Positions 213-13,723 of a stretch of 16,512 nt of DNA are shown in pieces. Made by a program: the position numbers and the translations under genes. The DNA is from Nannocystales bacterium (GTDB lineage Bacteria; Myxococcota_A; Polyangia; Nannocystales; Nannocystaceae), in contig JBOEGF010000055.1 of assembly GCA_050633305.1 (NCBI GenBank), positions 1-16,512 on the forward strand. Direction: 5' to 3'. The first letter of the stretch is position 1. The number at the start of each line of letters is the position of its first letter. The notes beneath the pieces are model-generated. The model was not told the DNA's origin, did no database searches, and worked only from the letters and a program-made list of their open reading frames with translations.

Positions 213-288
213 AACCATCGATCGAGAAAATCGATCCATTGCCGCCGATGATCGAAATCGATCGCGGGACCTCACACCGGCCGCAATA

Positions 289-319
289 GAGTCACAGAAA
301 ATTCGACAAAGTGTGACTC
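289..319. promoter_or_regulatory. Perfect 8-bp inverted repeat GAGTCACA-N15-TGTGACTC upstream of the recombinase (candidate protein-binding site or hairpin)
   Basis: gagtcaca (289-296), AT-rich spacer gaaaattcgacaaag, tgtgactc (312-319). Function is inferred. Confidence 0.4.
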
Positions 320-385
320 CCTGGCTTTTTGGGACAGGTCTTTTCCCTTTTAACGGGATCCGGTCTCTGGCAGGGTGTTCGGGCG

Positions 386-1327
386 ATGCAGCTCGCGCTC
401 TTCAGAACCCCGCCCGCCGAGCGTCGGCGTAAGCCGGCCTCGGGTCGGGTGGGGGGACCTTCGGTCTCCAAGAGGGGGCTTGAGATTCGGCTGCAGCGGC
501 CATTGGATGCGCCGGCGATCAAGAGCGCGGCGGGGCTGTCGTTCCTAAAGCCGGCACCGCCGAGCCGGGAGAAGGAGGGCAGGGGAGAGGTCGATGCGAA
601 GGCCGTCGACTTCGACCGGAGCATTGAGACCCTCGACCTCAAGCCCGGGTCCGACAAGGTCGTTGGTGAACTCGACGTCGGGGCAGGGGAGGGCGCCTCG
701 GCCGAGCTGGCGCCGCATCCCACTCGCGGTAAGCTGCTGCCGCCCGAGGTGTTCACCGAACGCGAAATCAGGGCGCTCATCGGCGCGTGCTCGACCCGTG
801 GGATCACCGGGCACCGGAACCGGGCGTTGCTCGCGATCCTCTGGCGCACTGGGGTTCGGATCTCCGAGGCGCTCGAGCTGCGGCCCCACGACGTCGACTT
901 CAAGAACGGGACTGTACGGGTGCGGCTTGGGAAGGGGCTCAAGCCTCGGACGACGGTGCTCTCGGATCTCGATGCGTTGCCGTTGGTCCAGCGCTGGCTT
1001 GAAGAGCGCGGGAAGCTAGAGGCCGTGGGTCAGGGCACTCCGCTGCTGTGCACCCTCAAAGGAACGCCCACCGATCCGAGCTACGCTCGGCACCTCCTCC
1101 CCAGACTGGCCAAGCGGGCCGGCTTGGAGCGGCGAGTGCACCCACACGGGTTGCGGCACACGCATGCGGCCGACCTCGCGCTGGCGGGGGTTCCGGTTCT
1201 CGTGATCCAGCAGCAACTTGGTCACAGCTCCCTCGTAGCTACGGCAGAGTACCTACGACGGGTGGGAGTCCGACTCGATGTGGCCGAAGCGATCCGTCCA
1301 AGCGAGAAGTTTCGCGCTAGTCGGTGA
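386..1327 (+). CDS. Tyrosine recombinase/integrase with a XerC/XerD-like catalytic domain
   Basis: All catalytic motifs are present: RNRALLAILWRTGVRISEAL (R), VRLGKG (K), HPHGLRH (HxxR), QLGHSS (H), TAEY (Y). The start is uncertain; the ATG at 386 was chosen. The first ~110 codons are low-complexity with no recognisable core-binding/SAM domain. Confidence 0.92.
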   Translation: MQLALFRTPPAERRRKPASGRVGGPSVSKRGLEIRLQRPLDAPAIKSAAGLSFLKPAPPSREKEGRGEVDAKAVDFDRSIETLDLKPGSDKVVGELDVGAGEGASAELAPHPTRGKLLPPEVFTEREIRALIGACSTRGITGHRNRALLAILWRTGVRISEALELRPHDVDFKNGTVRVRLGKGLKPRTTVLSDLDALPLVQRWLEERGKLEAVGQGTPLLCTLKGTPTDPSYARHLLPRLAKRAGLERRVHPHGLRHTHAADLALAGVPVLVIQQQLGHSSLVATAEYLRRVGVRLDVAEAIRPSEKFRASR

Positions 1328-2252
1328 GGCCCTCGACTGCGCGCTCCAGCGATGCGATCGCATCGTCGCGCTCCTTATCAGGCACACCGGCCTCCCGCGC
1401 GTACACAATCCCGAGCTCCAGCGCGCGACGCTTCCCTGAGACCGTCTTCAAGGCATCGACCTTGTCGAGTATCGCCTGCACCTCGATCTCCAACGCAGCA
1501 CGACGAAGCTCAGCCCGGATGTCTTGAGCTTGTACTTCCGCAAGCGCACGGTCGAGCGCTTTCTTGCGAGAGGTCGGCCCCTTGAGCCCCTCGATCTTCG
1601 TAACCCAACGAAGGAGCACGTCGTACTCCGAACTCGTCGCCACAACATCGGCCGCAGGGCCAGACGCCGATCGACTCGCCGGCGGGTGCACCGGGGCCGG
1701 CGGGGCCACGGGGACCACCAGGGCCGCAACCGCCTCACGGAGCTGGGGAGTCGCGTTGATAATCTTTTTGGCGTTCGCGGAGGCAAATCTGGCCGCGTAC
1801 CGCATCGAGGTGAAGTCCATCATCTTCACGCTGCCATCCCACCCGATGAACTCCACCGCTGGCCCGGCGCAGGCACAGGAGGTCGTTCTTTCGGACTCAG
1901 CACGGCGACCAAGACTGACGGCTCCGATGATAATGAAGACCCCCGAAGCGACCCCCAGAAGACCGGCGATGGGGCTCAGGAGGCAGACGAAGAGTCCACC
2001 GAACAGCATCCAGAAACCGAACTTGCGGGTCGACTGCGCTGACTGGAACGTGGACACGTGCTCAAGGCATGCGGCGCAGTAAGGGACTGAGAAACTCCGG
2101 GTGTGGGTCCTGACAACTTTCACACCGGTCGTGCGCGTGGCGACGGCCTCGAACTCTCCGCCTGCGCTACCCGAGCAGCATGCGCACTCGCTTGGGAACG
2201 AGGCGATCTGGGCCGACAGGTCAACGCGCACATTCACCCCCTCCGCCGACAT
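1317..2252 (-). CDS. Hypothetical membrane protein with Cys pairs (possible Zn ribbon) and two TM helices
   Basis: 311-aa ORF with CACC and CAAC motifs, the hydrophobic stretch FGFWMLFGGLFVCLLSPIAGLLGVASGVFIIIGAVSLG, a Pro/Ala linker and a helical C-terminus. Its 3' end overlaps the recombinase 3' end by 11 bp. Confidence 0.8.
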   Translation of the reverse strand: MSAEGVNVRVDLSAQIASFPSECACCSGSAGGEFEAVATRTTGVKVVRTHTRSFSVPYCAACLEHVSTFQSAQSTRKFGFWMLFGGLFVCLLSPIAGLLGVASGVFIIIGAVSLGRRAESERTTSCACAGPAVEFIGWDGSVKMMDFTSMRYAARFASANAKKIINATPQLREAVAALVVPVAPPAPVHPPASRSASGPAADVVATSSEYDVLLRWVTKIEGLKGPTSRKKALDRALAEVQAQDIRAELRRAALEIEVQAILDKVDALKTVSGKRRALELGIVYAREAGVPDKERDDAIASLERAVEGLTD

Positions 2253-2651
2253 CGGAGTTCACCAACGCAAGAGTCGCCATCGCCCGGGCGGCCAACACCG
2301 AGACGGGGCGATGGCTGGCGCCTTGAGCCGCGACCGAAGGTCCGGCGCTGATGCCCTGAAGCTCGTCGCCCAACCGACCCCTGGTAGGCGAGACTCTGAA
2401 GCCGCGGCGAAACTGAAGAAGCAGTAGTCCGAACACGTGCATCGATGGGACGTTGGCCACGGGAGCGACCGACACGATCAGCTCCGGGCTGCCCCGCCTG
2501 AACATGCCACACACGCTCGTTCATGCTGGTCGAGAAATCTGGACCAGCATCCCTGTCTCAAGATGAGACGCCGGCCCGTCGGCCACGAGCGTCAAGCCGT
2601 GCTTGTGGACCCGGCGAGGCAAGCCTTCCCCGCCTGTGAAACTCTTCGGCG

Positions 2652-3488
2652 GTGCAACTCGCCCAAGCCGCAGCAACCTCAATCACTCTGGCAATGGGGA
2701 GTTGCGCCCTGTTCTCGTCGCCCACCGTATCTCCAGCACCGTCGTACGTGCCATCCCCTCCGCCGCCATCGAGCGCCACGGTGAAGGAGGAAGACCCGCA
2801 CCTATCTCCGCACGTATATCTCGAGTTTCTACGCCACACCATCGGGCTGAAGGTCCAGAGCCACTGCCCCAGCACCAGCGAAGACTGCATCATGGACGTA
2901 ACAACGCTTCTGTTCGTCTACGAGATGAAGCGCTTGGCCTACGAGGACCTCTCGGAAGCCTTCCTCGCGGAAGCTGCTGCCCTCGCCGCGGACGACACCG
3001 CCGCCGCCGGGGACACGCGGAGAGCACAGCGGAGAGCACAGGCGGCGGCGGAGTCCGCGGCAAAGGCTCAGCAAGACGCCGTGAAAGTGTTTGAAGCCGT
3101 CTGGGCCCTCTCAAACAACCTGCCGCCTCCAGACGGCTCCTTCCTGGAGACGTACGACTGCTCTGGGATTCAGCCGAACGATCGTCTTTCCGCCAAAGAT
3201 GCTGAGTATCTACGCGGCCTCTGCATCGAGCTCAATGAGGTTGCACTGCAACGGCTCGCCGAGAGCGAAACGCCTCCCGAGTGCGCACGGGTATCGGGAT
3301 CGGCGGGTGGGAGCCGAACCGTGGCACGCTTCTGCGTCGACCTTCTTTCCGGCTCGATGTCCGCGCCAGGCACCACCCCTTCGGCGACGTGCTGCAAGGT
3401 CTGCGGCCCGACCTCCCAGGCCTGCGGCGACACCTGCATCTCCTTCGGAAAAACTTGTCACACCGCACCAGGCTGCGCGTGCCAGTAG
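2652..3488 (+). CDS. Putative lipoprotein with a C-terminal Cys-rich domain
   Basis: 278-aa ORF with a signal-like N-terminus ending LAMGSC, a Pro/Ser linker, and the C-terminus CCKVCGPTSQACGDTCISFGKTCHTAPGCAC (8 Cys). Confidence 0.75.
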   Translation: MQLAQAAATSITLAMGSCALFSSPTVSPAPSYVPSPPPPSSATVKEEDPHLSPHVYLEFLRHTIGLKVQSHCPSTSEDCIMDVTTLLFVYEMKRLAYEDLSEAFLAEAAALAADDTAAAGDTRRAQRRAQAAAESAAKAQQDAVKVFEAVWALSNNLPPPDGSFLETYDCSGIQPNDRLSAKDAEYLRGLCIELNEVALQRLAESETPPECARVSGSAGGSRTVARFCVDLLSGSMSAPGTTPSATCCKVCGPTSQACGDTCISFGKTCHTAPGCACQ

Positions 3489-3590
3489 CCCCCCGCCCGA
3501 GCATGCCGCCAGGCTCACGATGTCTGCACCGGCTTCGTTGCGCCATCGCCAGCAACTCTCCCAAGGAGTACGATCCGCACACGAAGCGCG

Positions 3591-3938
3591 ATGGCAGACA
3601 GAACAAGAATCGAAGTCTACGAATGGCCCGAAGGCACGGAACGAAGCACCGAGGTCTCAATCGATGTAATCGAGGGAGACCCCGTCGTTCCCATTCCGAC
3701 CACCGGTGACGTCATCCTCCTGCCTGCTCCCACGGCACAGGTACGCAGCCACGAAGTGGACGAGGACGAGTTTTTCATCATGCGCGGCTTGGGGAAGCCG
3801 TACCGCGTGGTTGGCCGCGAGCTAATGTTCAGCCCAAGGTCTTCCTCCACTGAGGACGACACACCGTCGTCATTCAGCCGGGCCTGGATCTTCGTCCGAG
3901 CGATGACAAAAGACGAGTACTGGGGGAGCGAACCGTAG
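3591..3938 (+). CDS. Hypothetical acidic protein (115 aa)
   Basis: ATG-started ORF with protein-like composition that fills the gap between neighbours. No family recognised. Confidence 0.7.
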   Translation: MADRTRIEVYEWPEGTERSTEVSIDVIEGDPVVPIPTTGDVILLPAPTAQVRSHEVDEDEFFIMRGLGKPYRVVGRELMFSPRSSSTEDDTPSSFSRAWIFVRAMTKDEYWGSEP

Positions 3939-4086
3939 CGGGCAGCAGCGCAACACGATCGAGCACGCGGCATGGTCGCAGCACGGGAGTGGCCCCCGAT
4001 TTCACAACTCAGAGGCAAGCCGCCGCCGATCCCCAACTTGCAGGTCGCGAACTCGAGGACCTTCTTCTTGGCCAAGCCATCGAGTC

Positions 4087-4551
4087 CTACTCCACAGCCT
4101 CGATGTGCTGCTTGCCCCGAAGCCTGTCGATCCACCGGAGCACCGCTTCACCCCGGTTGACCGTCTCGACGAGCACGGTGCCGTCCGGCGAGACTTCAAT
4201 GGTGGTCTTGATGCAGCGGCCACGGACGTAGTCCGCGTGCCAGTGAAGCCGACCGCGCGTGAACTCCAGGCCGCGCAGCATGTCTCCGGCCGTCCACTCG
4301 TCGTCGTCCTCGAACCACTTGCCGGAGACACCGCGCGGTCGCCCGTCGTGGAAGCTCAGTACACCGAGCGTGTAGATCAGCCCGAAGCTCACCGATTCCA
4401 CATCGTCCTCGGGGATTCGGAACACCACGCGGACGTGGGTGTCATCATCCCCGACCGTGGGTTCGACCTTCGTCTCGACAACCTCAAGCTCGACCGCGGT
4501 GCCGCTGCGGATCAGCTCGTGCTCGATGCGGCCGTCCTCGTCGGTAGACAT
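4087..4551 (-). CDS. Hypothetical protein (154 aa)
   Basis: ATG-started ORF with GC-rich third positions and a globular-looking sequence (SFHDGRPRG...DYVRGRCIKT). A -10-like TACTCT lies 6 nt upstream of the ATG. Confidence 0.8.
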   Translation of the reverse strand: MSTDEDGRIEHELIRSGTAVELEVVETKVEPTVGDDDTHVRVVFRIPEDDVESVSFGLIYTLGVLSFHDGRPRGVSGKWFEDDDEWTAGDMLRGLEFTRGRLHWHADYVRGRCIKTTIEVSPDGTVLVETVNRGEAVLRWIDRLRGKQHIEAVE

Positions 4552-4591
4552 CGTCGGAGAGTACCGCTGGCGGCTATACGCGGGCTATCAC

Positions 4592-4807
4592 CTGCAGGCC
4601 GAGGGGCAGGGGGCTCCGCTGCTCTGCACCCTCAAGGGGACTCCAACCGACCCCAGCTACGCGCGGCACCTGCTCCCGCGACTGGCCAAACGGGCCGGAC
4701 TGGAGCGGCGCGTGCACCCGCACGAACTGCGGCATACGCATGCGGCCGACCTGGCCCTCGCAGGGGCGCCCATCTTCGCCATCCAGCAGCAACTCGGGCA
4801 CACCTCG
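4592..4807 (+). pseudogene. Internal fragment of a second copy of the tyrosine recombinase
   Basis: 72 codons align ungapped with 1016-1231, with 63/72 aa identical by hand alignment. It keeps HELRH and LGH but has no N-terminal half and no catalytic Tyr. Confidence 0.92.
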
Positions 4808-4887
4808 GGGTGGCGGCCTCCTGGTCGAACGCCTCGGCGAGATCTGCACCAGCAGGGCGGCCACAGCCGCCCTGAACGACGTGCCCC

Positions 4888-5415
4888 TTACTCCTCCGGA
4901 AGAGGTAAGACCTCGGGCTCACAGTCCTCCGTGGGGAACGGTGAGCACGAGCTGTCGAGGCACAAGAAGCCGCACCCGCATTCGGGGTCGGCCTGGCACG
5001 GTGACTGGCACCGGGCTTCTATGAAGCCCGGTGCGCTGCCAGATACGTCGCAAACGTCGTCGCCGACGCACGCTTCTGCCTCCGTGCAGCCGTATGAGCA
5101 ATGCACGCCACCCCACACCATGAATGCCGGCTCCCCACAGCCTTCCGTGATTCGGGGGTCCTCGGGCGCGTCGATGTCGTGGTGGTAGTAGCCCGGCGGC
5201 AGCAGGCATGTTGGCGCGGAGCCGCCGAACCTCGGACGGCAGTGACCGGACTCGCAGTCGCTGTCCGCCCCACACGCCTCGCCCAGTTCCTGGCCGTCCG
5301 CACCGCCGGTCTAAAGACCGGCCGTCTCCACGGACGCCCCTTCGTCTTCATCGTCACCGCACCCTGCCAGGAGAGCGGACGCAAGGAGCAAGCCCAGGGC
5401 GAAGTTTCGGAGCAT
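4888..5415 (-). pseudogene. Cys-rich lipoprotein interrupted by one in-frame TAG
   Basis: Reads MLRNFALGLLLASALLAGCGDDEDEGASVETAGL*TGGADGQELGEACGADSDCESGHC..., with an LAGC lipobox and TAG at 5311-5313. The frame continues into the 4888..5121 ORF of the track. Confidence 0.85.
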
Positions 5416-5770
5416 GCCCAGCACTCTCGGTCACACGGGGTGCGAGGGGCAAGCCACCAGCGGCAGCCAGCCCTCGACCCCAAAACCTTCGAGCCTGACG
5501 ACGAACTCGCCCGGGGGGAGGGGGCCTCCGAGTCGCATTCGCACCCGACGAGAAACCTCGCGAAGAGCTGCAACCTCTCGCCGAGGTCCATGCCCAGGAT
5601 GACCCGCCCGGACTGCGACGACGGCCGTAGCTCTGGGCTGTCAAGCCCAGCGATCACGCGCTTGAGGCGGCCGAAATGATCAGCGACAACTATTTCTGCC
5701 GCAGCACCTGCGGCGGGTTGGGGCTGAACATGACGTCGCGTGGTGCCTTGCGAGGTAAGGTTTCTTCACC

Positions 5771-7036
5771 ATGAAAAAAATTGAGTGCATCGACTTGGAC
5801 CGACTCGGCGGGATGCTGCCGACCATCGCAGAGGTATTCGGGAAAGGACTGAACATCCAAGCCGAGCACTTCAACAAGAATGCACCGTCCGACGATTCCC
5901 CAGCTCAGATCGGCTGGTCGCTTCGCCGGAGCGGCGTGGTCAAACTCCCCCACGTACCCATCCTCGGAGCACTATCGCTGTCCGCGGACGCATCGCCGGT
6001 GTACCGCGGACTGGCGCTCGGGCCGGTTCTTGACCTTGAGCACAATCTGACGAACCTGAAGCGTGCCGGCAAGAAAGTGAGCCGCTACGCCACGATGCTT
6101 CGGAACCCAAACCAGTTCCTCCAACTAGTTGCCGAGACCAGCGTACAGGCCGGGCTGCTCCCTCTTCGTGGCGATCTCGCTCTCCACAACCCCACTGGCG
6201 AGGGCAGCAACAAGGACTACGACGTTCGATTCGAGCTGGACGGCAACCTTCTCCAGAGCGACGTGAAGTGGGTCCAGAACTGGCTGAGCCGAGACGCTGG
6301 CGAAGACGTTCTGAACCAACTGGACGGTCTCCTCGGAAGCGACCTGTCCGACACAATCACCGTCCGATTCCGCGACGGCATCTATCGGGAGGACGACATC
6401 ATCGCCGCCGCCGATGAGATCCTAGACCTCTACGAGGACCTCATTCGAACAGAGACAACCGGCTCCCACACGCGATACCTGAAGCGGTCATTTCCCGATT
6501 CGGTGACGTTCGCGATCACCGGTGAGCGCCACTTGCTGTCGCTGGGGATGACGGTCACCGGGGATGAGACCGATCGGCGAGCGATCGAAGGAAACATCCA
6601 AAAAGCGGCCTCGCAGATCGCGACCGAGTCGGACTCGGCTCTCCGCGCACCTGTCATCGCAACGAACCTCGCCCCACGGTTTCACGAGCACGTACTTCGA
6701 GAGCTCTTGTTTGGCCGCGACGAGTACGTCGCTTCACGGCCCGTTCGAGATATACGAGGATTCCCTGTGGTGCGAGCCGACGAAATCCGCCGGGTTCCGG
6801 GCCTTTTTGGAGACGCTGCCTTACCCGGACTTGAGCACGTCAACGGTGTCTTCTACCTGGGGCAGTGGTACGAGGTCACGAGTGATTCAGAGGTGACTCG
6901 GAAGAGATCCTGCCGGTTCTTCGCGCGCCCAGCTCTGGACGACAAGCTCAGCACTTTCGCGGAAACCGTTAGGAGCCAGCTCGATCAGGACGAGTCGTTC
7001 TCACTTGAAAATGGTCATGGAAAACCGCGAAACTGA
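5771..7036 (+). CDS. Hypothetical protein, possible PD-(D/E)xK restriction-endonuclease-like fold
   Basis: 421-aa ORF with an SD-like GAGG upstream. The segment VAETSV...NKDYDVRFELDGNLLQSDVKW resembles the E..(P)D..(D/E)xK pattern. The gene call is firm; the function is inferred. Confidence 0.7.
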   Translation: MKKIECIDLDRLGGMLPTIAEVFGKGLNIQAEHFNKNAPSDDSPAQIGWSLRRSGVVKLPHVPILGALSLSADASPVYRGLALGPVLDLEHNLTNLKRAGKKVSRYATMLRNPNQFLQLVAETSVQAGLLPLRGDLALHNPTGEGSNKDYDVRFELDGNLLQSDVKWVQNWLSRDAGEDVLNQLDGLLGSDLSDTITVRFRDGIYREDDIIAAADEILDLYEDLIRTETTGSHTRYLKRSFPDSVTFAITGERHLLSLGMTVTGDETDRRAIEGNIQKAASQIATESDSALRAPVIATNLAPRFHEHVLRELLFGRDEYVASRPVRDIRGFPVVRADEIRRVPGLFGDAALPGLEHVNGVFYLGQWYEVTSDSEVTRKRSCRFFARPALDDKLSTFAETVRSQLDQDESFSLENGHGKPRN

Positions 7037-7096: not shown

Positions 7097-7330
7097 ACAT
7101 CGCCCGGACCTGAACACCCAACTCCGCTGGCCGCCGGCCTCGGACCCGACTTCCGACGCCTCACCGGGGGACCGTTCGGCCACGAGTGGATCGACAGGAC
7201 CAGTCAAGACCACCGGGCTGAGCCCCCCCCCCCGCGACCCAACCCCGAGCCCAGTACACCCCTCTGTCAGGGTAGTTACCGCATGAACCGGGCGGCGGCA
7301 GCTCCGCCGCGGAACGCTGGCACCGACCGG

Positions 7331-7475
7331 ACACCTGAACACCCGCCGTTTCAGGACCTCGGTTTTTGGGCCTATCTTCCGCCCCGAGGCCCCCTACCCA
7401 CCCGTGGCAAAATCGCCGATAACCTAGATCATGTCCAATAAGGACAGGATGTACCTGTAGGACAGAGCGATCGTA
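7331..7475 (+). repeat. dif-containing repeat, copy A (site 7412-7439: ATCGCCGATAA CCTAGA TCATGTCCAAT)
   Basis: Ungapped 145-bp match to 11238-11382 with 14 mismatches by hand count, and a 78-bp match to 10108-10185 with 11 mismatches. Confidence 0.95.
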
Positions 7476-7544
7476 CACCTGCGAGGTCTCCTGCGCAAAC
7501 GCGCGTCAGTTGCACCCGCTTTTCGCTCCGACGCCCCCATGCCC

Positions 7545-8042
7545 CTACTTGCTGGCGTGGCACTGGAGACAGCCAAAACCTCGACCTGTCTCAGCATCGA
7601 ATGGCTTGAGACCCAGCAGCTCGGCCATTTCATGCTCCACCGGCCCGGCCATGAACTGCGCGAGCGCCCGGATTTCCGGGTCTTCCGACTCGAACATGGG
7701 CCCGATCTCTCCGAGCGCGAGCGGGTGCAAGGAGTTCGGCATCTGGAAATTCATGGCCTCCGCATCGTCGCCATGGCACGTGCTGCAGTCTACCGACGAC
7801 GGCAGGTTGCTGGCCGTCGAGCTAGCCTCGGCAAAGATTTCGTTCATCCGCGGCACGACCACCTCCTGCATAAAATCGCCCCGCGTCTCGAAGTCCATCT
7901 GCGCGTACGCAGGCCACTTTCGAGCAGCTTCCGTTCGCGACGCTTCGTCTTGGGGGCTGCCCGTTTGCACTGTCGGTTTCTGGCAAGCTGTGGCCAATAT
8001 CGCGAGTGCTACGGGGAGCACCTTCAGGAGTTGAGCTTTCAT
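7545..8042 (-). CDS. Putative diheme c-type cytochrome lipoprotein
   Basis: Signal peptide ending ILATAC, and two CxxCH motifs (CSTCH, CLQCH). The start overlaps the upstream GST stop (ATGA, 8039-8042). Confidence 0.85.
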   Translation of the reverse strand: MKAQLLKVLPVALAILATACQKPTVQTGSPQDEASRTEAARKWPAYAQMDFETRGDFMQEVVVPRMNEIFAEASSTASNLPSSVDCSTCHGDDAEAMNFQMPNSLHPLALGEIGPMFESEDPEIRALAQFMAGPVEHEMAELLGLKPFDAETGRGFGCLQCHASK

Positions 8043-8998
8043 GGATTCTTCCCTCGAAGAGCACTGAGGTTTGGACCGCTGGTAGCGGTCTGAAATGGGT
8101 TGGGGGGCGTACGCGGAATGATGCGCGGGTTTACCAGGTCCTCAAGCTCTGCGAAATAGTGGCGCTTCGCGTGGCTCAGCCTCACGGTCGAAGCGACCCG
8201 CTCGTCCTCCATCAAGCGCTCCGCGTAGGCCGAGAGTCGCGGGTAGTCCACCAATCGCCGGAGGCTACACTTCAGCGCGTACTGATACACCGCGTCGAAC
8301 CGTGCAAGAGTGGGAAGCAGGAAAACATCAGCCTCGGTGAGATCGCCTCCCATGAGGTAGGGTCCCTCCTCGAGCCTGCTCTCCAACGCGTCGAGCGCTG
8401 CAAACAAGGACTCAATGGCACAATCGTACTCTGACTGCGTCGCCGCAAACCCGGCCGCATACACACCGCTGCCAACGCGGCTGTGAATGAACTGCGTTAG
8501 TTCGTCGATCGCGTCGGCTTGGGCCGCGGGATAGAGATCGACGCCATTTTCTGCCAGGTCGCGGAACCCCCGAACGATCTGGGCGGATTCGATGCTGACC
8601 AACGTCCCGGACGTCCGGTCCCACACTGCCGGAACGGTCACCTTACCCGTGAAGTCAGGAATCCCCTTCGCGTAGACTTCGTGAAGCGCACGCGCGCCGT
8701 GGATCGGATCGTCGTTTGGTGCATCGTCGAAGGGCGCGAACACCCAGCCGTCTGGGCCGCTCCAGTCTGGGTGCAAGAAGCTGACCGTGACAACGGGGCT
8801 CAATCCGTACAGCTTGTAGGCGAGCTGAGTACGGTGGGCGAACGGGCAGGCATATGAGGCGTAGAGGTGGTACCGAGCTTTCGGCGCCGCGCAGGGTGCC
8901 CACGCCCCCCTACCTCGGGTCTCGTTTCTCCGAGCCTGCCTGAGCGCATCGGTATCTTGGACCCCGACCATCCAATTGCCTTGAACTGAGAACTTCAT
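8039..8998 (-). CDS. yqjG: Glutathionyl-hydroquinone reductase-like glutathione S-transferase (omega/Xi class, YqjG/ECM4 family)
   Basis: Motifs RYHLYASYACPFAHRT, FTGKVTVPAVWD, ESAQI, GVYAAGFAATQ and TLARFDAVY..LKC. The start was reassigned to the ATG at 8998, because the track's extension to 9640 is the antisense shadow of LysR. Confidence 0.92.
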   Translation of the reverse strand: MKFSVQGNWMVGVQDTDALRQARRNETRGRGAWAPCAAPKARYHLYASYACPFAHRTQLAYKLYGLSPVVTVSFLHPDWSGPDGWVFAPFDDAPNDDPIHGARALHEVYAKGIPDFTGKVTVPAVWDRTSGTLVSIESAQIVRGFRDLAENGVDLYPAAQADAIDELTQFIHSRVGSGVYAAGFAATQSEYDCAIESLFAALDALESRLEEGPYLMGGDLTEADVFLLPTLARFDAVYQYALKCSLRRLVDYPRLSAYAERLMEDERVASTVRLSHAKRHYFAELEDLVNPRIIPRTPPNPFQTATSGPNLSALRGKNP

Positions 8999-9055
8999 TC
9001 CGTTGCTCTGTGAATAGGCGTTGCGTTCACGCGCGTCGACAAGCAAGATCGCAAC

Positions 9056-10003
9056 ATGCCGTTGCCTGGGCGCAATGATGTCCGTTGGGACGATCTCAAA
9101 CTGTTCCTCGCGCTCACGCGCGCCGAGACCCTCGCAGGCGCGTCCGCTCAACTCGGCATCCACGCATCGACCGTCTTCCGGCGCATCGGTCTTCTCGAGG
9201 AGCTCTTGGGCACTCGGCTTTTTGACCGACTGGCGACCGGACATGCCCTCACCGCGGCTGGCTCTCGGCTCATCGAGTACGCCGAGAGGATCGAGGATGA
9301 GGCGCTCGCAGCGACCAGAGCGTTGGCGGGCGGCGACTTTCGGCTGCGCGGAACCGTACGCCTGGCCACCACCGACACTGTAGCGGTACGCCTGCTGGGC
9401 GCACCGCTGGAACAGTTCCGCAGTGCGCATCCCGAGATCATCGTCGAACTTCTGATCGACAACCGTCCCGTTCACCTCGGTCGTGGCGAGGCCGAACTCG
9501 CCGTGCGGCCCGGCCCCCATCCGGGGCAAGACGATGTCATCGCCACAGAGGCGGCACGCCTCGGCTCCGGATTTTTTGCATCCAAGCGCTACTTGCAGCG
9601 TTGCGGGAAGCCTGCAAGCCGTCGTAGGCTTCAGTGCCACGAGTTCGTCTCGGTCGACTCTTCCCTCAGCTCACTCAGCTACGCGAAGTTTCTCACCGAT
9701 CACTTCCCAGAAGCGTCGATCGTGTATCGAAGCAACACATTGCTCGCGCTCGCCGCGGCTGTCGAGGCGGGAATCGGGATCGGGTTACTGCCCTGTTTTC
9801 TCTTCGCGGGTCGCCAGGACGTGGAGCGCCTGTTCGCCCCGGTGCCGGAGCTGCAAACGCCGCTCTGGCTACTCGTTCACGTGGACCTGCGGCGGACCGC
9901 GCGAGTTCAAGCGCTCAAAGAACACCTTCTGGCGTGGACGACGCGGCACAGCGCGGCCCTGCTGAGCGGCGCCGCCATCCGCCCGGACGACAAGATAAGC
10001 TAG
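9056..10003 (+). CDS. LysR-family transcriptional regulator
   Basis: N-terminal HTH WDDLKLFLALTRAETLAGASAQLGIHASTVFRRIGLLEELLGTRLFDR followed by a substrate-binding domain. Divergent from the GST operon. Confidence 0.96.
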   Translation: MPLPGRNDVRWDDLKLFLALTRAETLAGASAQLGIHASTVFRRIGLLEELLGTRLFDRLATGHALTAAGSRLIEYAERIEDEALAATRALAGGDFRLRGTVRLATTDTVAVRLLGAPLEQFRSAHPEIIVELLIDNRPVHLGRGEAELAVRPGPHPGQDDVIATEAARLGSGFFASKRYLQRCGKPASRRRLQCHEFVSVDSSLSSLSYAKFLTDHFPEASIVYRSNTLLALAAAVEAGIGIGLLPCFLFAGRQDVERLFAPVPELQTPLWLLVHVDLRRTARVQALKEHLLAWTTRHSAALLSGAAIRPDDKIS

Positions 10004-10107
10004 TGCGGTTCATCAACAGTCTCCGTTCGACGAACCACGTCGTGACGGCGTGGCCAAAACCGAGCTATGCCCGCTCGAGCTGAGCGTCGAAGACCCCCGC
10101 ATTTCGC

Positions 10108-10185
10108 GGCCTATCTTCCGCCCCAAGGCCCCCTACACCGCCGTGGCAAAAACGCCGACAATCTAGATTGTGTCCACAAAGGACA
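10108..10185 (+). repeat. dif-containing repeat, copy B (site 10151-10178: AACGCCGACAA TCTAGA TTGTGTCCACA)
   Basis: 67/78 identity to copy A, same orientation, located between the convergent 3' ends of lysR and rpn. Confidence 0.9.
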
Positions 10186-10223
10186 CGTGCCCCATGAAGA
10201 CAGATCACGGGGCAGGGGAGGGC

Positions 10224-10451
10224 TCAGCCCTCGAAGACTTCGTCCACCACCGCAACCGTCGCCGCCCGCACAAGCCAGTCCTGCAGAACCTCAAGCTCGC
10301 TGCACTCTTCGACCCGTCGCCGAACATCCGGCGCCACGACCAGGCCCCGCGCATCGAGAACGGTCAACACTGACGCGGCCGCTCGACGCAGCTCCCCTTG
10401 AGCGGCACCTCGGGCCTCACCTTCGGCAAGAAGCTGTTCTGCGATGGTCAT
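10224..10451 (-). CDS. Putative in-frame intragenic small protein Rpn-S (75 aa antitoxin)
   Basis: Internal ATG at MTIAEQLL, preceded by GCGGAATCCATCACG (weak SD). The position matches the internal start described for Rpn toxin-antitoxin genes. Confidence 0.6.
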   Translation of the reverse strand: MTIAEQLLAEGEARGAAQGELRRAAASVLTVLDARGLVVAPDVRRRVEECSELEVLQDWLVRAATVAVVDEVFEG

Positions 10452-11210
10452 CGTGATGGATTCCGCGGCGGGTGCTCGCTCCTTGAGGATGGCACGAAAC
10501 TCCTCCAGCTGCAGGTCGGACGAGACGCGGACAACGTAGGAGAGCAGAGGGGCCAAAGCGCGCTCTCCGCCCGGCGTCTGGGCCAGCTCCTCGAGCTCGC
10601 CCAGCCAGTCCACGAGCCGCCGAAGGAGCAGGGCGCCATCCCTCGCATCCCGCATCAGCCACAGCGCGAGCCGAGCCTGCTGGGCCACCCCGCGGGCCCT
10701 CAGGTTGGCGTCATCGGTCCGATGAAGGTCGTCGACCGCGTACGAGAAGTCCGGCAGCACGGCATCGGCGAGCGCCCCGAGGTTCGGTGAGAACAGCTCA
10801 GAGAACCGCGTCGCCGCCTTCCAGCCGCCGACGACCTGCGACAGCACCGCGGGAACGATCAGCGGCAGCGGCAATGCCTTGTTCTTGTCGTCGTCCGAGA
10901 ACCGCTCCCAGATGCTGACCATGTAGCTCAACAGCCGCAGCGCCATCTTCGGCTCGGGCGTCGACTGGTGCTCGAACAGCAGGTACACGAGCACGCGCTC
11001 GCCGGAGGCTTGCGCGTTCGCCGAGAACAGCAGGTCGCTGTGCTGGTCCGCCAGTTTCTCGTCGACGTAGCTTCCGGGCTCAAGCTTCAGCGTCGACCAG
11101 TCGATCGCGGAGACGTGCTCGGCTGAGAGCACGTGCTGCAGCTCAGCCGCGGCATTCTCGGGCTGCTGGAACACGCTCTTGAAGAGCGCGTCGTGCGGGG
11201 TCTTCGTCAC
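10224..11210 (-). CDS. Rpn family recombination-promoting nuclease / putative transposase (YhgA-like, PD-(D/E)xK)
   Basis: Motifs PHDALFK, LKLEPGSYVDEKL...SDLLFS, VYLLFEHQS, MALRLLSY, LPLIVPAVL and MTIAEQL...GEARG. The start is placed at the GTG at 11210. Confidence 0.95.
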   Translation of the reverse strand: MTKTPHDALFKSVFQQPENAAAELQHVLSAEHVSAIDWSTLKLEPGSYVDEKLADQHSDLLFSANAQASGERVLVYLLFEHQSTPEPKMALRLLSYMVSIWERFSDDDKNKALPLPLIVPAVLSQVVGGWKAATRFSELFSPNLGALADAVLPDFSYAVDDLHRTDDANLRARGVAQQARLALWLMRDARDGALLLRRLVDWLGELEELAQTPGGERALAPLLSYVVRVSSDLQLEEFRAILKERAPAAESITMTIAEQLLAEGEARGAAQGELRRAAASVLTVLDARGLVVAPDVRRRVEECSELEVLQDWLVRAATVAVVDEVFEG

Positions 11211-11220
11211 GGGCGCCGGG

Positions 11221-11229
11221 ACGATAACA
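11221..11229 (-). promoter_or_regulatory. Candidate extended -10 promoter (TGtTATCGT) for rpn
   Basis: TG-n-TATCGT on the minus strand, 10 nt upstream of the GTG and adjacent to the left end of repeat copy C. Confidence 0.45.
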
Positions 11230-11237
11230 CTCGCCGC

Positions 11238-11382
11238 ACACCTGAACACCCGCCGTTTCGGAACCTCGATTTTCGGGCCTATCTTCCGCCCCGTGGCCCC
11301 CTACCCACCCGTGGCAAAAACGCCGATAATAATGATTATGTCCAATGAGGACAGGATGTACCTGTAGGGCAGTGCGATCGTA
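11238..11382 (+). repeat. dif-containing repeat, copy C (site 11319-11346: AACGCCGATAA TAATGA TTATGTCCAAT)
   Basis: The right arm matches the E. coli dif XerD arm TTATGTTAAAT at 9/11 and the left arm matches GGTGCGCATAA at 6/11. The ATAA-N6-TTAT core is intact. Confidence 0.95.
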
Positions 11383-11514
11383 GCGCAGCAGCGCGTTTTT
11401 TGCAAGCGCCCGCTGCCGAGCTGCCCACAGCAGCCCCCAGGAGCTCAAGCAGCTGCCAGGGCTGGTATCGTCCGACGTTGCCCTGATAAGCCCAATAAGG
11501 GCTGAGACTGGAGT

Positions 11515-12276
11515 TCAGAGCGTGAAGCCGACGCGGTACTGAGACGGTGTCTGCCCCATGAGGTCCCGAAACGCAGACTGGAACGCCGAGAGCGACGCGT
11601 AGCCGACGTCCATCGCGATCTGGGTCACCGAGTGATCGGTGCCTGCGAGCTGCTCGATCGCTCGAAGCACGCGAAGGCGCCGTAGCGCGGCTCGCCAGGT
11701 CATGCCGAGTTCCTGTTCGAATCGTCGGGCCAACGATCGCGACGCCATCCCGATCTCGTCGGCGATGTCGGTAAGCCGAGGATCGTCGGCGAGCCGCGCC
11801 TCGGTGACCGCAAGTGCTCGCCGGACCTCCGCCGATCGCCCGGCGGGCATGTGCGCCGGACTCGGGTGCGCGGCAAGAGCCCACGCAACCTCGGCTAGCG
11901 CGCGAAACATCGCAAGCGCGTAGGCGTTGAGCGGCGCAGCCTCGTCACCCCACTGTGCGCACTCGGTGATGAGTGCCTGAGCGAGCGGTGTCAGGTCGAC
12001 GACCGCGAGGTTCGCGAGTGGCGCCGGGGCGAATGTGGTGCTGAAGAGCACCGAAGCGGTCGTGGCCCGTTGCGGGATCGTGACCTGGATCGGCACTGCC
12101 GCCCGGATGACCGCCGCCCGAGCCGGCGGCAGTGACCAGGTCGTTCCGTCGACCTCCAGCCGCAGCGCTCCGCGGGAGGCGGCAAGTAGATAGTGCCGGT
12201 TGACGCACAACGGCTGCGCCGGCGTTGACTGGAACTCACGGACGAAGCTGAATGCCGGCCGCTGCACACCGCACAC
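11515..12276 (-). CDS. AraC-family transcriptional regulator
   Basis: Cupin-like N-terminus (WSLPPARAAVI) and a C-terminal double HTH (IADEIGMASRSLARRF...SVTQIAMDVGYASLSAFQSAFRDLMGQTPSQYR). Confidence 0.95.
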   Translation of the reverse strand: MCGVQRPAFSFVREFQSTPAQPLCVNRHYLLAASRGALRLEVDGTTWSLPPARAAVIRAAVPIQVTIPQRATTASVLFSTTFAPAPLANLAVVDLTPLAQALITECAQWGDEAAPLNAYALAMFRALAEVAWALAAHPSPAHMPAGRSAEVRRALAVTEARLADDPRLTDIADEIGMASRSLARRFEQELGMTWRAALRRLRVLRAIEQLAGTDHSVTQIAMDVGYASLSAFQSAFRDLMGQTPSQYRVGFTL

Positions 12277-12285
12277 TATCGCCCT

Positions 12286-12600
12286 TCAAGCGACGGTCTC
12301 CACCAACTCGACCAGGAAACGGCGGCTCGACGGCGTCCCGATCATCATCGGACGGAGACGAGCAACCGAACGGGCAAACGACTCCGACGCGAGGTACGCG
12401 TCAAAAGATGGCTGGTCGGCCCACTCGTGGAGCACAGTTATATCGTTGTCGTTTTGCCGGCTCGAGAAGGCCCGGATCGCGAGACAGCCAGGCATTGCGG
12501 CGATCTGAGGCTGTTCACGCTCCAGCTGGGCGATGGCGGCCGGTCGATCCGCGGCGGCCGTCGAAAAGTCTAGGATGGCAATGAAGGAGGGCGTTGTCAT
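12286..12600 (-). CDS. Antibiotic biosynthesis monooxygenase (ABM) / putative quinol monooxygenase family protein
   Basis: 104 aa from the ATG at 12600, with the pattern AMPGCLAIRAF...ITVLHEWADQPSFDAYLASESF. Co-oriented 9 bp upstream of araC. Confidence 0.85.
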   Translation of the reverse strand: MTTPSFIAILDFSTAAADRPAAIAQLEREQPQIAAMPGCLAIRAFSSRQNDNDITVLHEWADQPSFDAYLASESFARSVARLRPMMIGTPSSRRFLVELVETVA

Positions 12601-12639
12601 GCATCCATGGTGCGCCGACCCGGAACGAACGCGCTGCCG

Positions 12640-12672
12640 CCGAACGGACGAAAACACGCTCCGAACGGCCAA
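12640..12672. promoter_or_regulatory. Tandem direct repeat with 21-bp period, candidate AraC operator
   Basis: ccgaacggacgaa (12640) and ccgaacggccaa (12661), 40-72 bp upstream of the ABM start. Direct half-sites about 21 bp apart are typical of AraC-family activators. Confidence 0.6.
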
Positions 12673-12919
12673 CCGAGGGCCCCGTGGATTCGGTGAAAAC
12701 AGCGATGCTCCGAAAGCTCGCCGAGGAACCGCACGACGGACGACGACCTCCGCTATCCCCCGCTCGCCAACCAGGCTACGCAGGCGCTGTCATGCGCGAC
12801 GCCCGGGACGCACCGCCCTTCCACAGTACGTCGCCAACTGGGCGGATGCCCTGGAACGCCTAGCCCGAGCCCCTGGCGGCCGAGACGCCATCATCCGCCC
12901 CCTACACGACATCGCACCC

Positions 12920-13287
12920 AGGGTCGGAACCACATCGGTGTAAAGGTGCAAGAGCGGCGTTGGCGCTCGGGTCCTCGCCCGACGGGGCACCTGCCGTCAT
13001 CCCTGGGCGCTGTTCGGTCTCGAAACCGCCTGGAGCCGAGCTCAGAGCGGTTCTCATGTCCATGAGGGGCATGCTCAAACCTGCCAAAAAGGGGCCCTCT
13101 CCTTGGACCGCTCGCATTCTGGCCGCAGCAGTGCCACTGCGAAGAGAGTCTCGCCTGCCATGATGGGCAGACTCCAGATGACACCGTAGCGCCCCGAGGT
13201 CGGTGCCTCAGGGCCTTTGGACACGAACCGGCTCTTCCAGGACGAGGAGCGTCATCGCCGCTCTCGCACCGATGTGGTTCCGACCCT
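12920..13287. mobile_element. 368-bp element bounded by perfect 21-bp inverted repeats (MITE-like or invertible segment)
   Basis: agggtcggaaccacatcggtg (12920-12940) and its exact reverse complement (13267-13287). The match extends inward by 17/20 after an 8-bp indel. No convincing gene inside and no target-site duplication seen. Confidence 0.6.
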
Positions 13288-13723
13288 AAATCAGAAACAC
13301 CGAATTCGACCAGCAGGAGGGCGTTCCGAGCTTGTTGCGGAACGATGGCCAACCTTCAGTTCCCTTCAAGGGCACCGACGTTTAGCGGGCGTAGCGCCGC
13401 TTAGCGCCGCATCCGGTTCCGTTGTTCCCCATGCCCCCCATCGAGCAACCGCTGCACCTGGGGGTCGAAGCACATCCGTACAGAATGTTGCGCTAAGGAA
13501 TTGTACGCAAAGTTGGCCGTTCCAACCGCGGCTAACCTCTTGAAATCACGGAGCGGTGACAGTTTGAGGACGAGGGCCGACGCCATGATCGCACGCCGCG
13601 ATCCCGGTTAAAAGCCCGCGCGACGTCGACGTGCCCCAGCTTGCCCTCAAGCACCGGCGCTTCGATCACGAGATATCGCAGAAACGTGACCAAGCGGAAG
13701 CCGGAGGCCCCAACCCGACCTCC

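Follow-up and report, generated by a model that had tools for sequence, protein, structure and literature searches.

Directly repeated dif-like sites join gene modules into integron-like arrays in a genus of myxobacteria

The contig JBOEGF010000055.1 of a Nannocystales bacterium, 16,512 nt long and analysed whole (the window; contig C55 of genome G000, a draft of 11.0 Mb with 66% GC), carries a row of gene modules separated by three sites, A, B and C, that resemble dif, the chromosomal site through which bacteria part their replicated chromosomes. This row is one of several such arrays found in this genome and in one genus. The arrays are real and represent a variant of Xer-based gene modules that has not been described before; they are laid out like an integron, and their catalysis is predicted. 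Their modules are probably exchanged by Xer-type recombination at ectopic copies of dif, with the host XerC and XerD proteins as the most likely catalysts. In the open-access literature no paper was found on direct-repeat dif arrays in myxobacteria or on a linked catalytic-only recombinase; subscription papers lay outside the search.

The sites and their flanks

Each site has an 11-bp XerC arm (C arm), a 6-bp spacer and an 11-bp XerD arm (D arm). All three lie on the + strand (Table 1), 2739 bp apart from A to B and 1168 bp from B to C. A degenerate pattern of the core matches the window three times, at A, B and C, and 200 shuffles gave a mean of 0.00 matches. The three co-oriented sites described in the initial annotation have the sequences that it claimed. 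Their description as dif-like also held, since the arms resemble those of the dif of this genome and a matrix derived from the sites recovers that dif. The same annotation had spoken of one 145-bp repeat. Three related copies there are, but they are not uniform: A and C are alike across 149–166 bp with 87–90% identity, whereas B matches them over only 78–85 bp and has a different right flank.

The sites share a joint anatomy in which a conserved left flank of ~100 bp precedes the C arm and a right flank of ~45 bp follows the D arm. The right flank consists of two TGTCC-N5-GGACA palindromes 18 bp apart, the first overlapping the D arm. In a pooled set of 54 distinct site-plus-flank strings the first palindrome is present in 52 and the second in 40, while the inner C arm has at most one mismatch in 50 and the inner D arm in 45; no other columns of the pooled sites are as well conserved as these inner arms.

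The relaxed palindrome TGTCY-N5-RGACA occurs 154 times in the genome against 21–37 times at other spacings (4–7 times commoner), mostly within genes. Because of this enrichment and its location the palindrome may be a site for a host protein, possibly a nucleoid protein. It is densest at C15:84016-104731, with nine copies in 21 kb, beside two parS-like sites on a contig with an origin-type skew switch.

Six strands of the sites gave no significant fold versus shuffles (z 0.34 to -1.69), and a single-strand hairpin of the attC or CTX attP type was rejected on that ground. Neither was the description of the modules as promoter-carrying borne out, as no sigma70-type promoter was found in 7100-11600. 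Control of the arrays by LexA was likewise rejected, with no LexA box in any of the 54 site strings or in the two recombinase leaders tested. A 16-mer upstream of lexA (L191, G000:C43:271398-271413), which we take to resemble the Myxococcus LexA box, has 10 full-score matches genome-wide.

The chromosomal dif

A weight matrix trained on 11 of the repeat sites was scanned over the genome. Outside the training set a single site exceeded 21 bits, C4:295980-296007 with 27.1 bits, and the reversed genome gave no match at 20 bits or more. This site lies 2.3 kb from the maximum of the cumulative GC skew, and C4:288-302 kb holds no second dif-like site. It is the chromosomal dif, single-copy and at the GC-skew switch. 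The suggestion that copy C might be the true dif is thereby refuted, and neither A nor B can take its place. The C55 array is best read as part of a chromosomal island away from the terminus dif.

The motif CCGATAA-N6-TTATGT was found in 58 of 72 genomes of the family. Of the 65 genomes from other genera, 49 have one copy, 2 have two and 14 have none; within the genus it is multi-copy in six of seven genomes. The dif spacer is TGTATA in six of the seven, the D arm of the genus dif is the TTATGTC variant and the D arms of the arrays follow it. The host XerD match scores 348 bits, above the NCBIfam cut-off of 330, and the best XerC match 324 bits, just below the cut-off of 335. Second dif-like sites without array flanks stand beside mobile-looking genes in two genomes of other genera (L181:2948-2975 and L182:1128-1155). 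Extra dif-like motifs in genomes G011 and G025 were rejected as arrays, being lone sites without these flanks.

Distribution of the arrays

Copy C gave 13 BLASTN matches in its own genome, on C55, C56, C63, C66, C70, C9, C13 and C17, and a weaker copy of the repeat lies on C58. Matches were obtained in four of the six other genomes of the genus and in none of 53 other genomes searched. When metagenomes were scanned for the site pattern, 41 stretches in 40 loci were returned. The 25 loci with a GC content of at least 0.6 were kept and carry the same kind of site; the remaining 15 (GC below 0.6; lone matches with no flank, rpn or recombinase) were dropped as probable chance matches. Several metagenome loci overlap or share a sample, and L093 is 99.99% identical to C63.

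Adjacent sites are directly repeated in 21 of 22 pairs, the single exception being a pair 57 kb apart. Arrays in large contigs adjoin ordinary chromosomal genes at differing places, related arrays lying beside hemC, at a tRNA-Leu island and beside an oxidoreductase gene cluster. The terminal site or flank on the chromosome side is often degenerate, and comparison with empty sites brought out no clean point of attachment for the islands as a whole. A phage or plasmid origin was rejected, with no relative of the array recombinase in viral contigs, nor in plasmids at E 1e-25; the one viral match to the site pattern is a lone site in DNA of 53% GC.

Anti-phage systems and metal-efflux genes are among the cargo across arrays. 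In two genomes dif-like sites are followed by related clusters for heavy-metal efflux (L044/L045, G002:C33:3225-25129, and G000:C63:19112-45000), one of them inside a 21.9-kb direct-repeat module. Another island contig of the genome, C74, encodes a 2707-aa protein with SpvB/TcdB-like and RHS domains (L140:6982-15102).

Exchange of modules at the sites

The same module recurs with different neighbours. Nine sites stand on the R2 side of rpn (R2 being the right-flank type of site B) and have nine different left contexts; 12 sites with rpn sequence to their left have 12 different right contexts. The AraC-ABM block to the right of site C has a copy in C56 that is 96% identical over 11396-12675, with homology beginning at 11316, at the site, and the C56 copy starts at a site whose left flank is unrelated. 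The claim that the sites bound modules thus stands, both the rpn module and the AraC-ABM block being found in different company with breakpoints at the sites.

Linkage was measured as the correlation of pairwise distances among 44 site strings with intact flanks. Two parts of the left flank separated by 28 bp give a correlation of 0.44, C arm and left flank one of 0.48, and D arm and right flank one of 0.65. Across the core it is 0.13 at the same 28-bp gap (p 0.08) and 0.06 for whole halves (p 0.22). By this measure the linkage of the flanks collapses across the core, which places the breakpoints there. The spacer ends in GA at all nine R2 sites compared with 21 of 45 others, which suggests that its 3' end moves together with the module on its right. 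The spacers of sites A and B have five of six bases in common.

An insertion sequence points to the C arm from another side. The genome holds four copies of a 1442-bp ISNCY/IS1202-type element with TGT...ACA ends and a 430-aa transposase (NF033594, above cut-off), and none of the four lies elsewhere than at these repeats. In two of them the end nearer the transposase stands 5 bp from the C arm, and one of the two also shows a 5-bp duplication; L117 likewise carries such an element 5 bp from the C arm. In the IS1202 subgroup that targets Xer sites (ISAba32/ISAjo2), the left end lies 5–6 bp from the XerC arm with a 5-bp duplication (PMC10132070; 10.1101/2022.12.17.520857). The element here agrees with that subgroup in length, ends, transposase size, duplication and distance from the arm; it differs in that two of the four copies have lost all but the far end, which stands 1 and 4 bp away from where it would be expected, and its place in the subgroup is putative. 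By analogy, this targeting points to occupancy of the array sites by XerC.

The array recombinase

The tyrosine recombinase gene at the head of the window encodes, as modelled, a folded catalytic domain (approximately residues 120–295) behind a disordered N-terminal tail of ~110 aa; the predicted local distance difference test score is mostly 43–64 for residues 1–110 and above 90 for residues 121–290. Residues R158, K183, R257, H280 and Y289 are invariant among 58 aligned homologues, and change in the catalytic part is biased to third codon positions. The protein scores below the cut-offs for XerC, XerD and IntI (TIGR02249, 72 bits against 265). A fold search returned general tyrosine recombinases only, XerA and XerH first. 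It belongs to a tight clade of ~68 clusters inside a wider family of mostly 200–240-aa proteins. A second clade of short catalytic-only recombinases, ~45% identical, occurs in neighbouring islands (L005:14640-15176 on C68, L094, L126 and L051), and C68:20900-20927 is a site with two XerD-like arms.

The genome holds four further long copies, 75–84% identical, plus fragments, and recombinases 88–91% identical to that of the window are found in Nannocystaceae records. Intact close copies occur in five of the seven genus genomes and in none of 53 others, one of which has a fragment. Fragments are also scattered in arrays (window 4565-4807, L006, L014, L039, L107 and L112), which suggests repeated insertion and decay. 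Wherever an intact recombinase shares a contig or locus with sites it is co-oriented with them (13 of 13), with a site 0.6–14.6 kb downstream, and on C58 a site directly follows the gene. The recombinase, which the initial annotation had named as a possible agent beside XerCD, is thus tied to the arrays. Three intact copies lie on contigs too short to judge linkage. A DUF1508 gene stands before the recombinase in several array copies. The cargo directly after it is often defence-like: TrlF/Ppl-like ATPase, Mza-like genes with Dcm, type I restriction, E1/CapP, and OLD-type ATPase with UvrD helicase.

The leader of the gene contains an inverted pair, AGTCACA/TGTGACT, 15 bp apart, that is kept in most aligned copies. 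The leader was rejected as a decayed site flank because its likeness is at chance level, 176 of 500 shuffles being equally good.

The rpn module

Coding sequence of rpn precedes 18 of 45 distinct left flanks, in many cases as 5' fragments of varying length, and at least five left flanks are preceded by the leader of an IS91-like transposase. An IS91/ISCR-like Y2 transposase stands in place of rpn before some left flanks (L006:7074-7952, L099:992-2365 and L011:8843-10207), and in L099 it fills the whole module from site to left flank. Rpn proteins are described as nucleases that promote RecA-independent recombination (PMC5350276), and elsewhere as anti-phage toxins with an intragenic antitoxin, a small C-terminal protein made from an internal start (PMC10400941). 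The rpn gene of the window has an internal ATG at codon 254. Hypothetically, the rpn module maintains itself and acts as a founder that gives rise to the other modules. A turnover of accessory genes through the arrays would also point to a route for the spread of rpn genes.

Mechanism and alternative explanations

In the explanation that we favour, copies of the host dif, ectopic and all in direct orientation, link the gene modules of the array to one another, each module running from a D arm and its ~45-bp right flank through the cargo to a ~100-bp left flank and a C arm. Because every module would have this direct end layout, a single one could loop out or insert without inversion. Host XerC, probably with XerD, would bind the core and exchange strands there. 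By analogy with the phages among the integrative mobile elements exploiting Xer recombination (IMEX), exchange would begin with XerC and be completed by replication or branch migration. Such a XerC-first or activator-assisted route is favoured over FtsK-driven resolution because neighbouring spacers mismatch, the spacer's 3' end appears to go with the module to its right and the arrays lie far from the terminus; both routes are described for IMEX (PMC5357621; PMC9226527). The catalytic-only recombinase would most likely assist or partner the reaction and so make it independent of FtsK, or else mobilise the island, and homologous recombination in the flanks would add further shuffling.

Several observations weigh against exchange by host Xer proteins at the sites, or limit what it explains. 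Since the loci share a common descent, and some samples contributed more than one of them, the counts given above are not independent. The cytochrome-GST-LysR module between A and B was found in none of the six other genus genomes and is by itself at most putatively mobile; the AraC-ABM block has no site at its right end. The spacers that bound complete rpn modules have only one to four of six bases in common (8 of 8 modules). Left flanks are 82–92% identical where the adjoining cargo is mostly 94–100% identical, so conversion or crossover also acts in the left flanks, and a comparison of L118 with L124 gives a pattern like homologous exchange in the 5' part of rpn. Downstream of one intact recombinase (G002:C19) 33 kb of sequence contain no site, and genome G004 has sites and no intact recombinase. 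No circles were seen in the contigs assembled from four runs, none of the runs compared holding more than 0.17 of the words. Two contig joints were rejected as signs of excision or of a circle: one of X1 from 7446 to 10196 (short side 27 letters, depth 3.9) and one of X3 that goes back 1170 could both come from other repeat copies.

The array might be an integron-like capture platform built independently from Xer, in which the catalytic-only recombinase activates or partners XerC/D at the ectopic dif copies without FtsK, so that modules enter and leave singly, and new modules form when foreign DNA replaces the 3' part of rpn, possibly by way of Rpn cuts. This is a possible but doubtful extension; it would explain the many truncated rpn starts before left flanks. 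That the catalytic-only recombinase is itself the catalyst, alone or with one host Xer subunit, taking the part of an integron integrase and binding the TGTCC-N5-GGACA boxes, we regard as unlikely. Its constant orientation towards downstream sites, the C58 site directly after the gene, the invariant catalytic residues, the third-position bias and the confinement of intact close copies to the genus all speak for such a role, and FimB and FimE are active without a core-binding domain. Against this, both host Xer arms are retained at the sites, targeting of the IS1202 type suggests that XerC occupies them, the genome-wide enrichment of the palindrome fits a host protein and the leader of the gene resembles the flanks only at chance level.

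Quite unlikely is a history in which dif-bearing satellites integrated one after another and left the sites as relics, the rpn unit being the selfish founder and present shuffling consisting of RecA-dependent recombination and deletion across the 150–200-bp repeats. The rpn sequence upstream of left flanks, the mosaic left flanks, the mismatched spacers, the degenerate terminal sites and the presence of two recA genes in the genome are what it would lead one to expect; against it, linkage drops sharply at the core and does not decay with distance, the C56 AraC copy joins at a site without left-flank homology and the inner arms are the best-conserved columns. The initial annotation had cited IMEX, which leave direct copies at dif. 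Direct repeats and dif-like arms would suit modules that are IMEX stacked at the terminus with one site as the chromosomal dif, but copy C is not that dif, no array site accompanies the dif of C4 in 288-302 kb and related arrays lie at the three other chromosomal locations named above, so that this reading is contradicted and hardly credible.

Genes of the window

The module contents agree with those first described, A-B enclosing cytochrome, GST (glutathione S-transferase) and LysR genes and B-C rpn alone, except that the 'cytochrome' is a lipoprotein with two CxxCH motifs and no Pfam match. Further right, at 12920-13287, two perfect inverted repeats of 21 bp are separated by 326 bp; C63 and C24 carry related ends, and the stretch has the look of a miniature inverted-repeat transposable element. 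Short scars at 13296-13579 recur on C78, C50, C70, C66, C36, C17, C62 and C4, some of this type adjoining other recombinase or transposon genes.

Table 1. Sites, flanks and genes of the window
Feature	Position	Strand	Remarks
DUF1508 gene, cut by contig start	1..209	+	Pfam PF07411; shared with C70 and C58
Recombinase leader, conserved; candidate left end or control region of the array	219..385	+	Homology starts at ~219 in 6/6 aligned copies
Tyrosine recombinase	386..1327	+	PF00589 only; no core-binding domain
First cargo block, recombinase to site A	1317..7036	.	Orphan open reading frames and a 421-aa open reading frame; no internal site
Fragment of second copy of the same recombinase	4565..4807	+	81% identical to residues 203-282
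Left flank (XerC side) of site A, conserved, ~100 bp	7310..7411	+	
Site A, dif-like	7412..7439	+	Spacer CCTAGA; identical to genome dif at 8/11 (C arm) and 9/11 (D arm)
Two tandem TGTCC-N5-GGACA palindromes at site A	7432..7464	+	7432-7446 overlaps D arm; second at 7450-7464
Lipoprotein, c-type cytochrome-like	7545..8042	-	Module A-B; CxxCH at residues 86 and 158
Glutathione S-transferase family gene	8039..8998	-	Module A-B; PF13410, PF13409
LysR regulator, divergent from GST	9056..10003	+	Module A-B; PF00126, PF03466
Left flank of site B, shortened	10091..10150	+	
Site B, dif-like	10151..10178	+	Spacer TCTAGA; C arm 6/11, D arm 7/11 versus genome dif; D arm is the variant typical for rpn modules
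Right flank type R2 at site B	10179..10223	+	9/9 R2 sites stand before rpn 3' end, nowhere else
rpn (YhgA-like nuclease), only gene of module B-C	10224..11210	-	PF04754; TIGR01784 above cut-off
Left flank of site C, also rpn upstream region	11217..11318	+	
Site C, dif-like	11319..11346	+	Spacer TAATGA; C arm 7/11, D arm 10/11 versus genome dif
Right flank type R1 at site C	11339..11390	+	Two tandem palindromes (11339-11353, 11357-11371)
AraC and ABM block	11347..12675	-	AraC 11515-12276, ABM 12286-12600; Pfam

Comparison with known systems

Among the closest known systems are the dif modules of Acinetobacter. C and D modules alternate there between inverted sites and exchange needs identical or near-identical spacers (PMC13141974), and chromosomal dif-module islands exist that encode no recombinase (PMC12907356). 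Both systems have several XerC/D sites off the main dif, and in both a module has one gene or several and many modules form a linear array. Spacers vary, toxin-antitoxin and metal-resistance genes belong to the cargo, and elements of the IS1202 family insert 5 bp from XerC; in both, the same module is found in different contexts with breakpoints at the sites. The Acinetobacter modules have inverted sites, move in pairs, keep near-identical spacers and lack a recombinase, whereas the arrays here have direct sites, one C and one D end per module, mismatched neighbouring spacers, long conserved flanks and a dedicated recombinase at the head. Direct-repeat arrays would let one module move at a time, which the inverted system cannot do.

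With IMEX (CTX, VGJ, TLC, GGI and EludIMEX-1) the arrays share direct dif-like sites around DNA and, by inference, the use of host Xer. IMEX are phages or large islands whose insertion point is the chromosomal dif, and TLC encodes XafT, an activator of its own that is independent of FtsK (PMC5357621; PMC9226527). The arrays, in contrast, lie elsewhere than dif, have many modules of 1–3 kb and show no significant strand fold, and no viral relative of their recombinase was found in viral contigs. Their distance from the terminus and their mismatched spacers pose the question of how Xer is activated at ectopic sites, and the arrays gather candidates for that activation in one place, namely the linked recombinase and the two conserved flanks.

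The cer and psi plasmid resolution sites (10.1101/2022.12.17.520857) likewise join a Xer core to a conserved region on the XerC side that possibly binds accessory proteins. Unlike cer and psi, the array sites are chromosomal and multiple and have a second conserved flank on the XerD side.

Integrons have an IntI integrase, an attI site and attC hairpin sites. The arrays resemble them in that swappable, defence-rich units line up behind a tyrosine recombinase gene that is co-oriented with them, and the sites at the far end are degenerate. With their cargo of anti-phage systems and metal-efflux genes, the arrays could be a main way in which accessory genes turn over in these myxobacteria. The arrays differ from integrons in having dif-like sites with no attC hairpin, and multi-gene modules of mixed orientation with their own regulators; and their recombinase, unlike IntI, lacks the core-binding domain, falls far below the IntI cut-off and reads toward the array.

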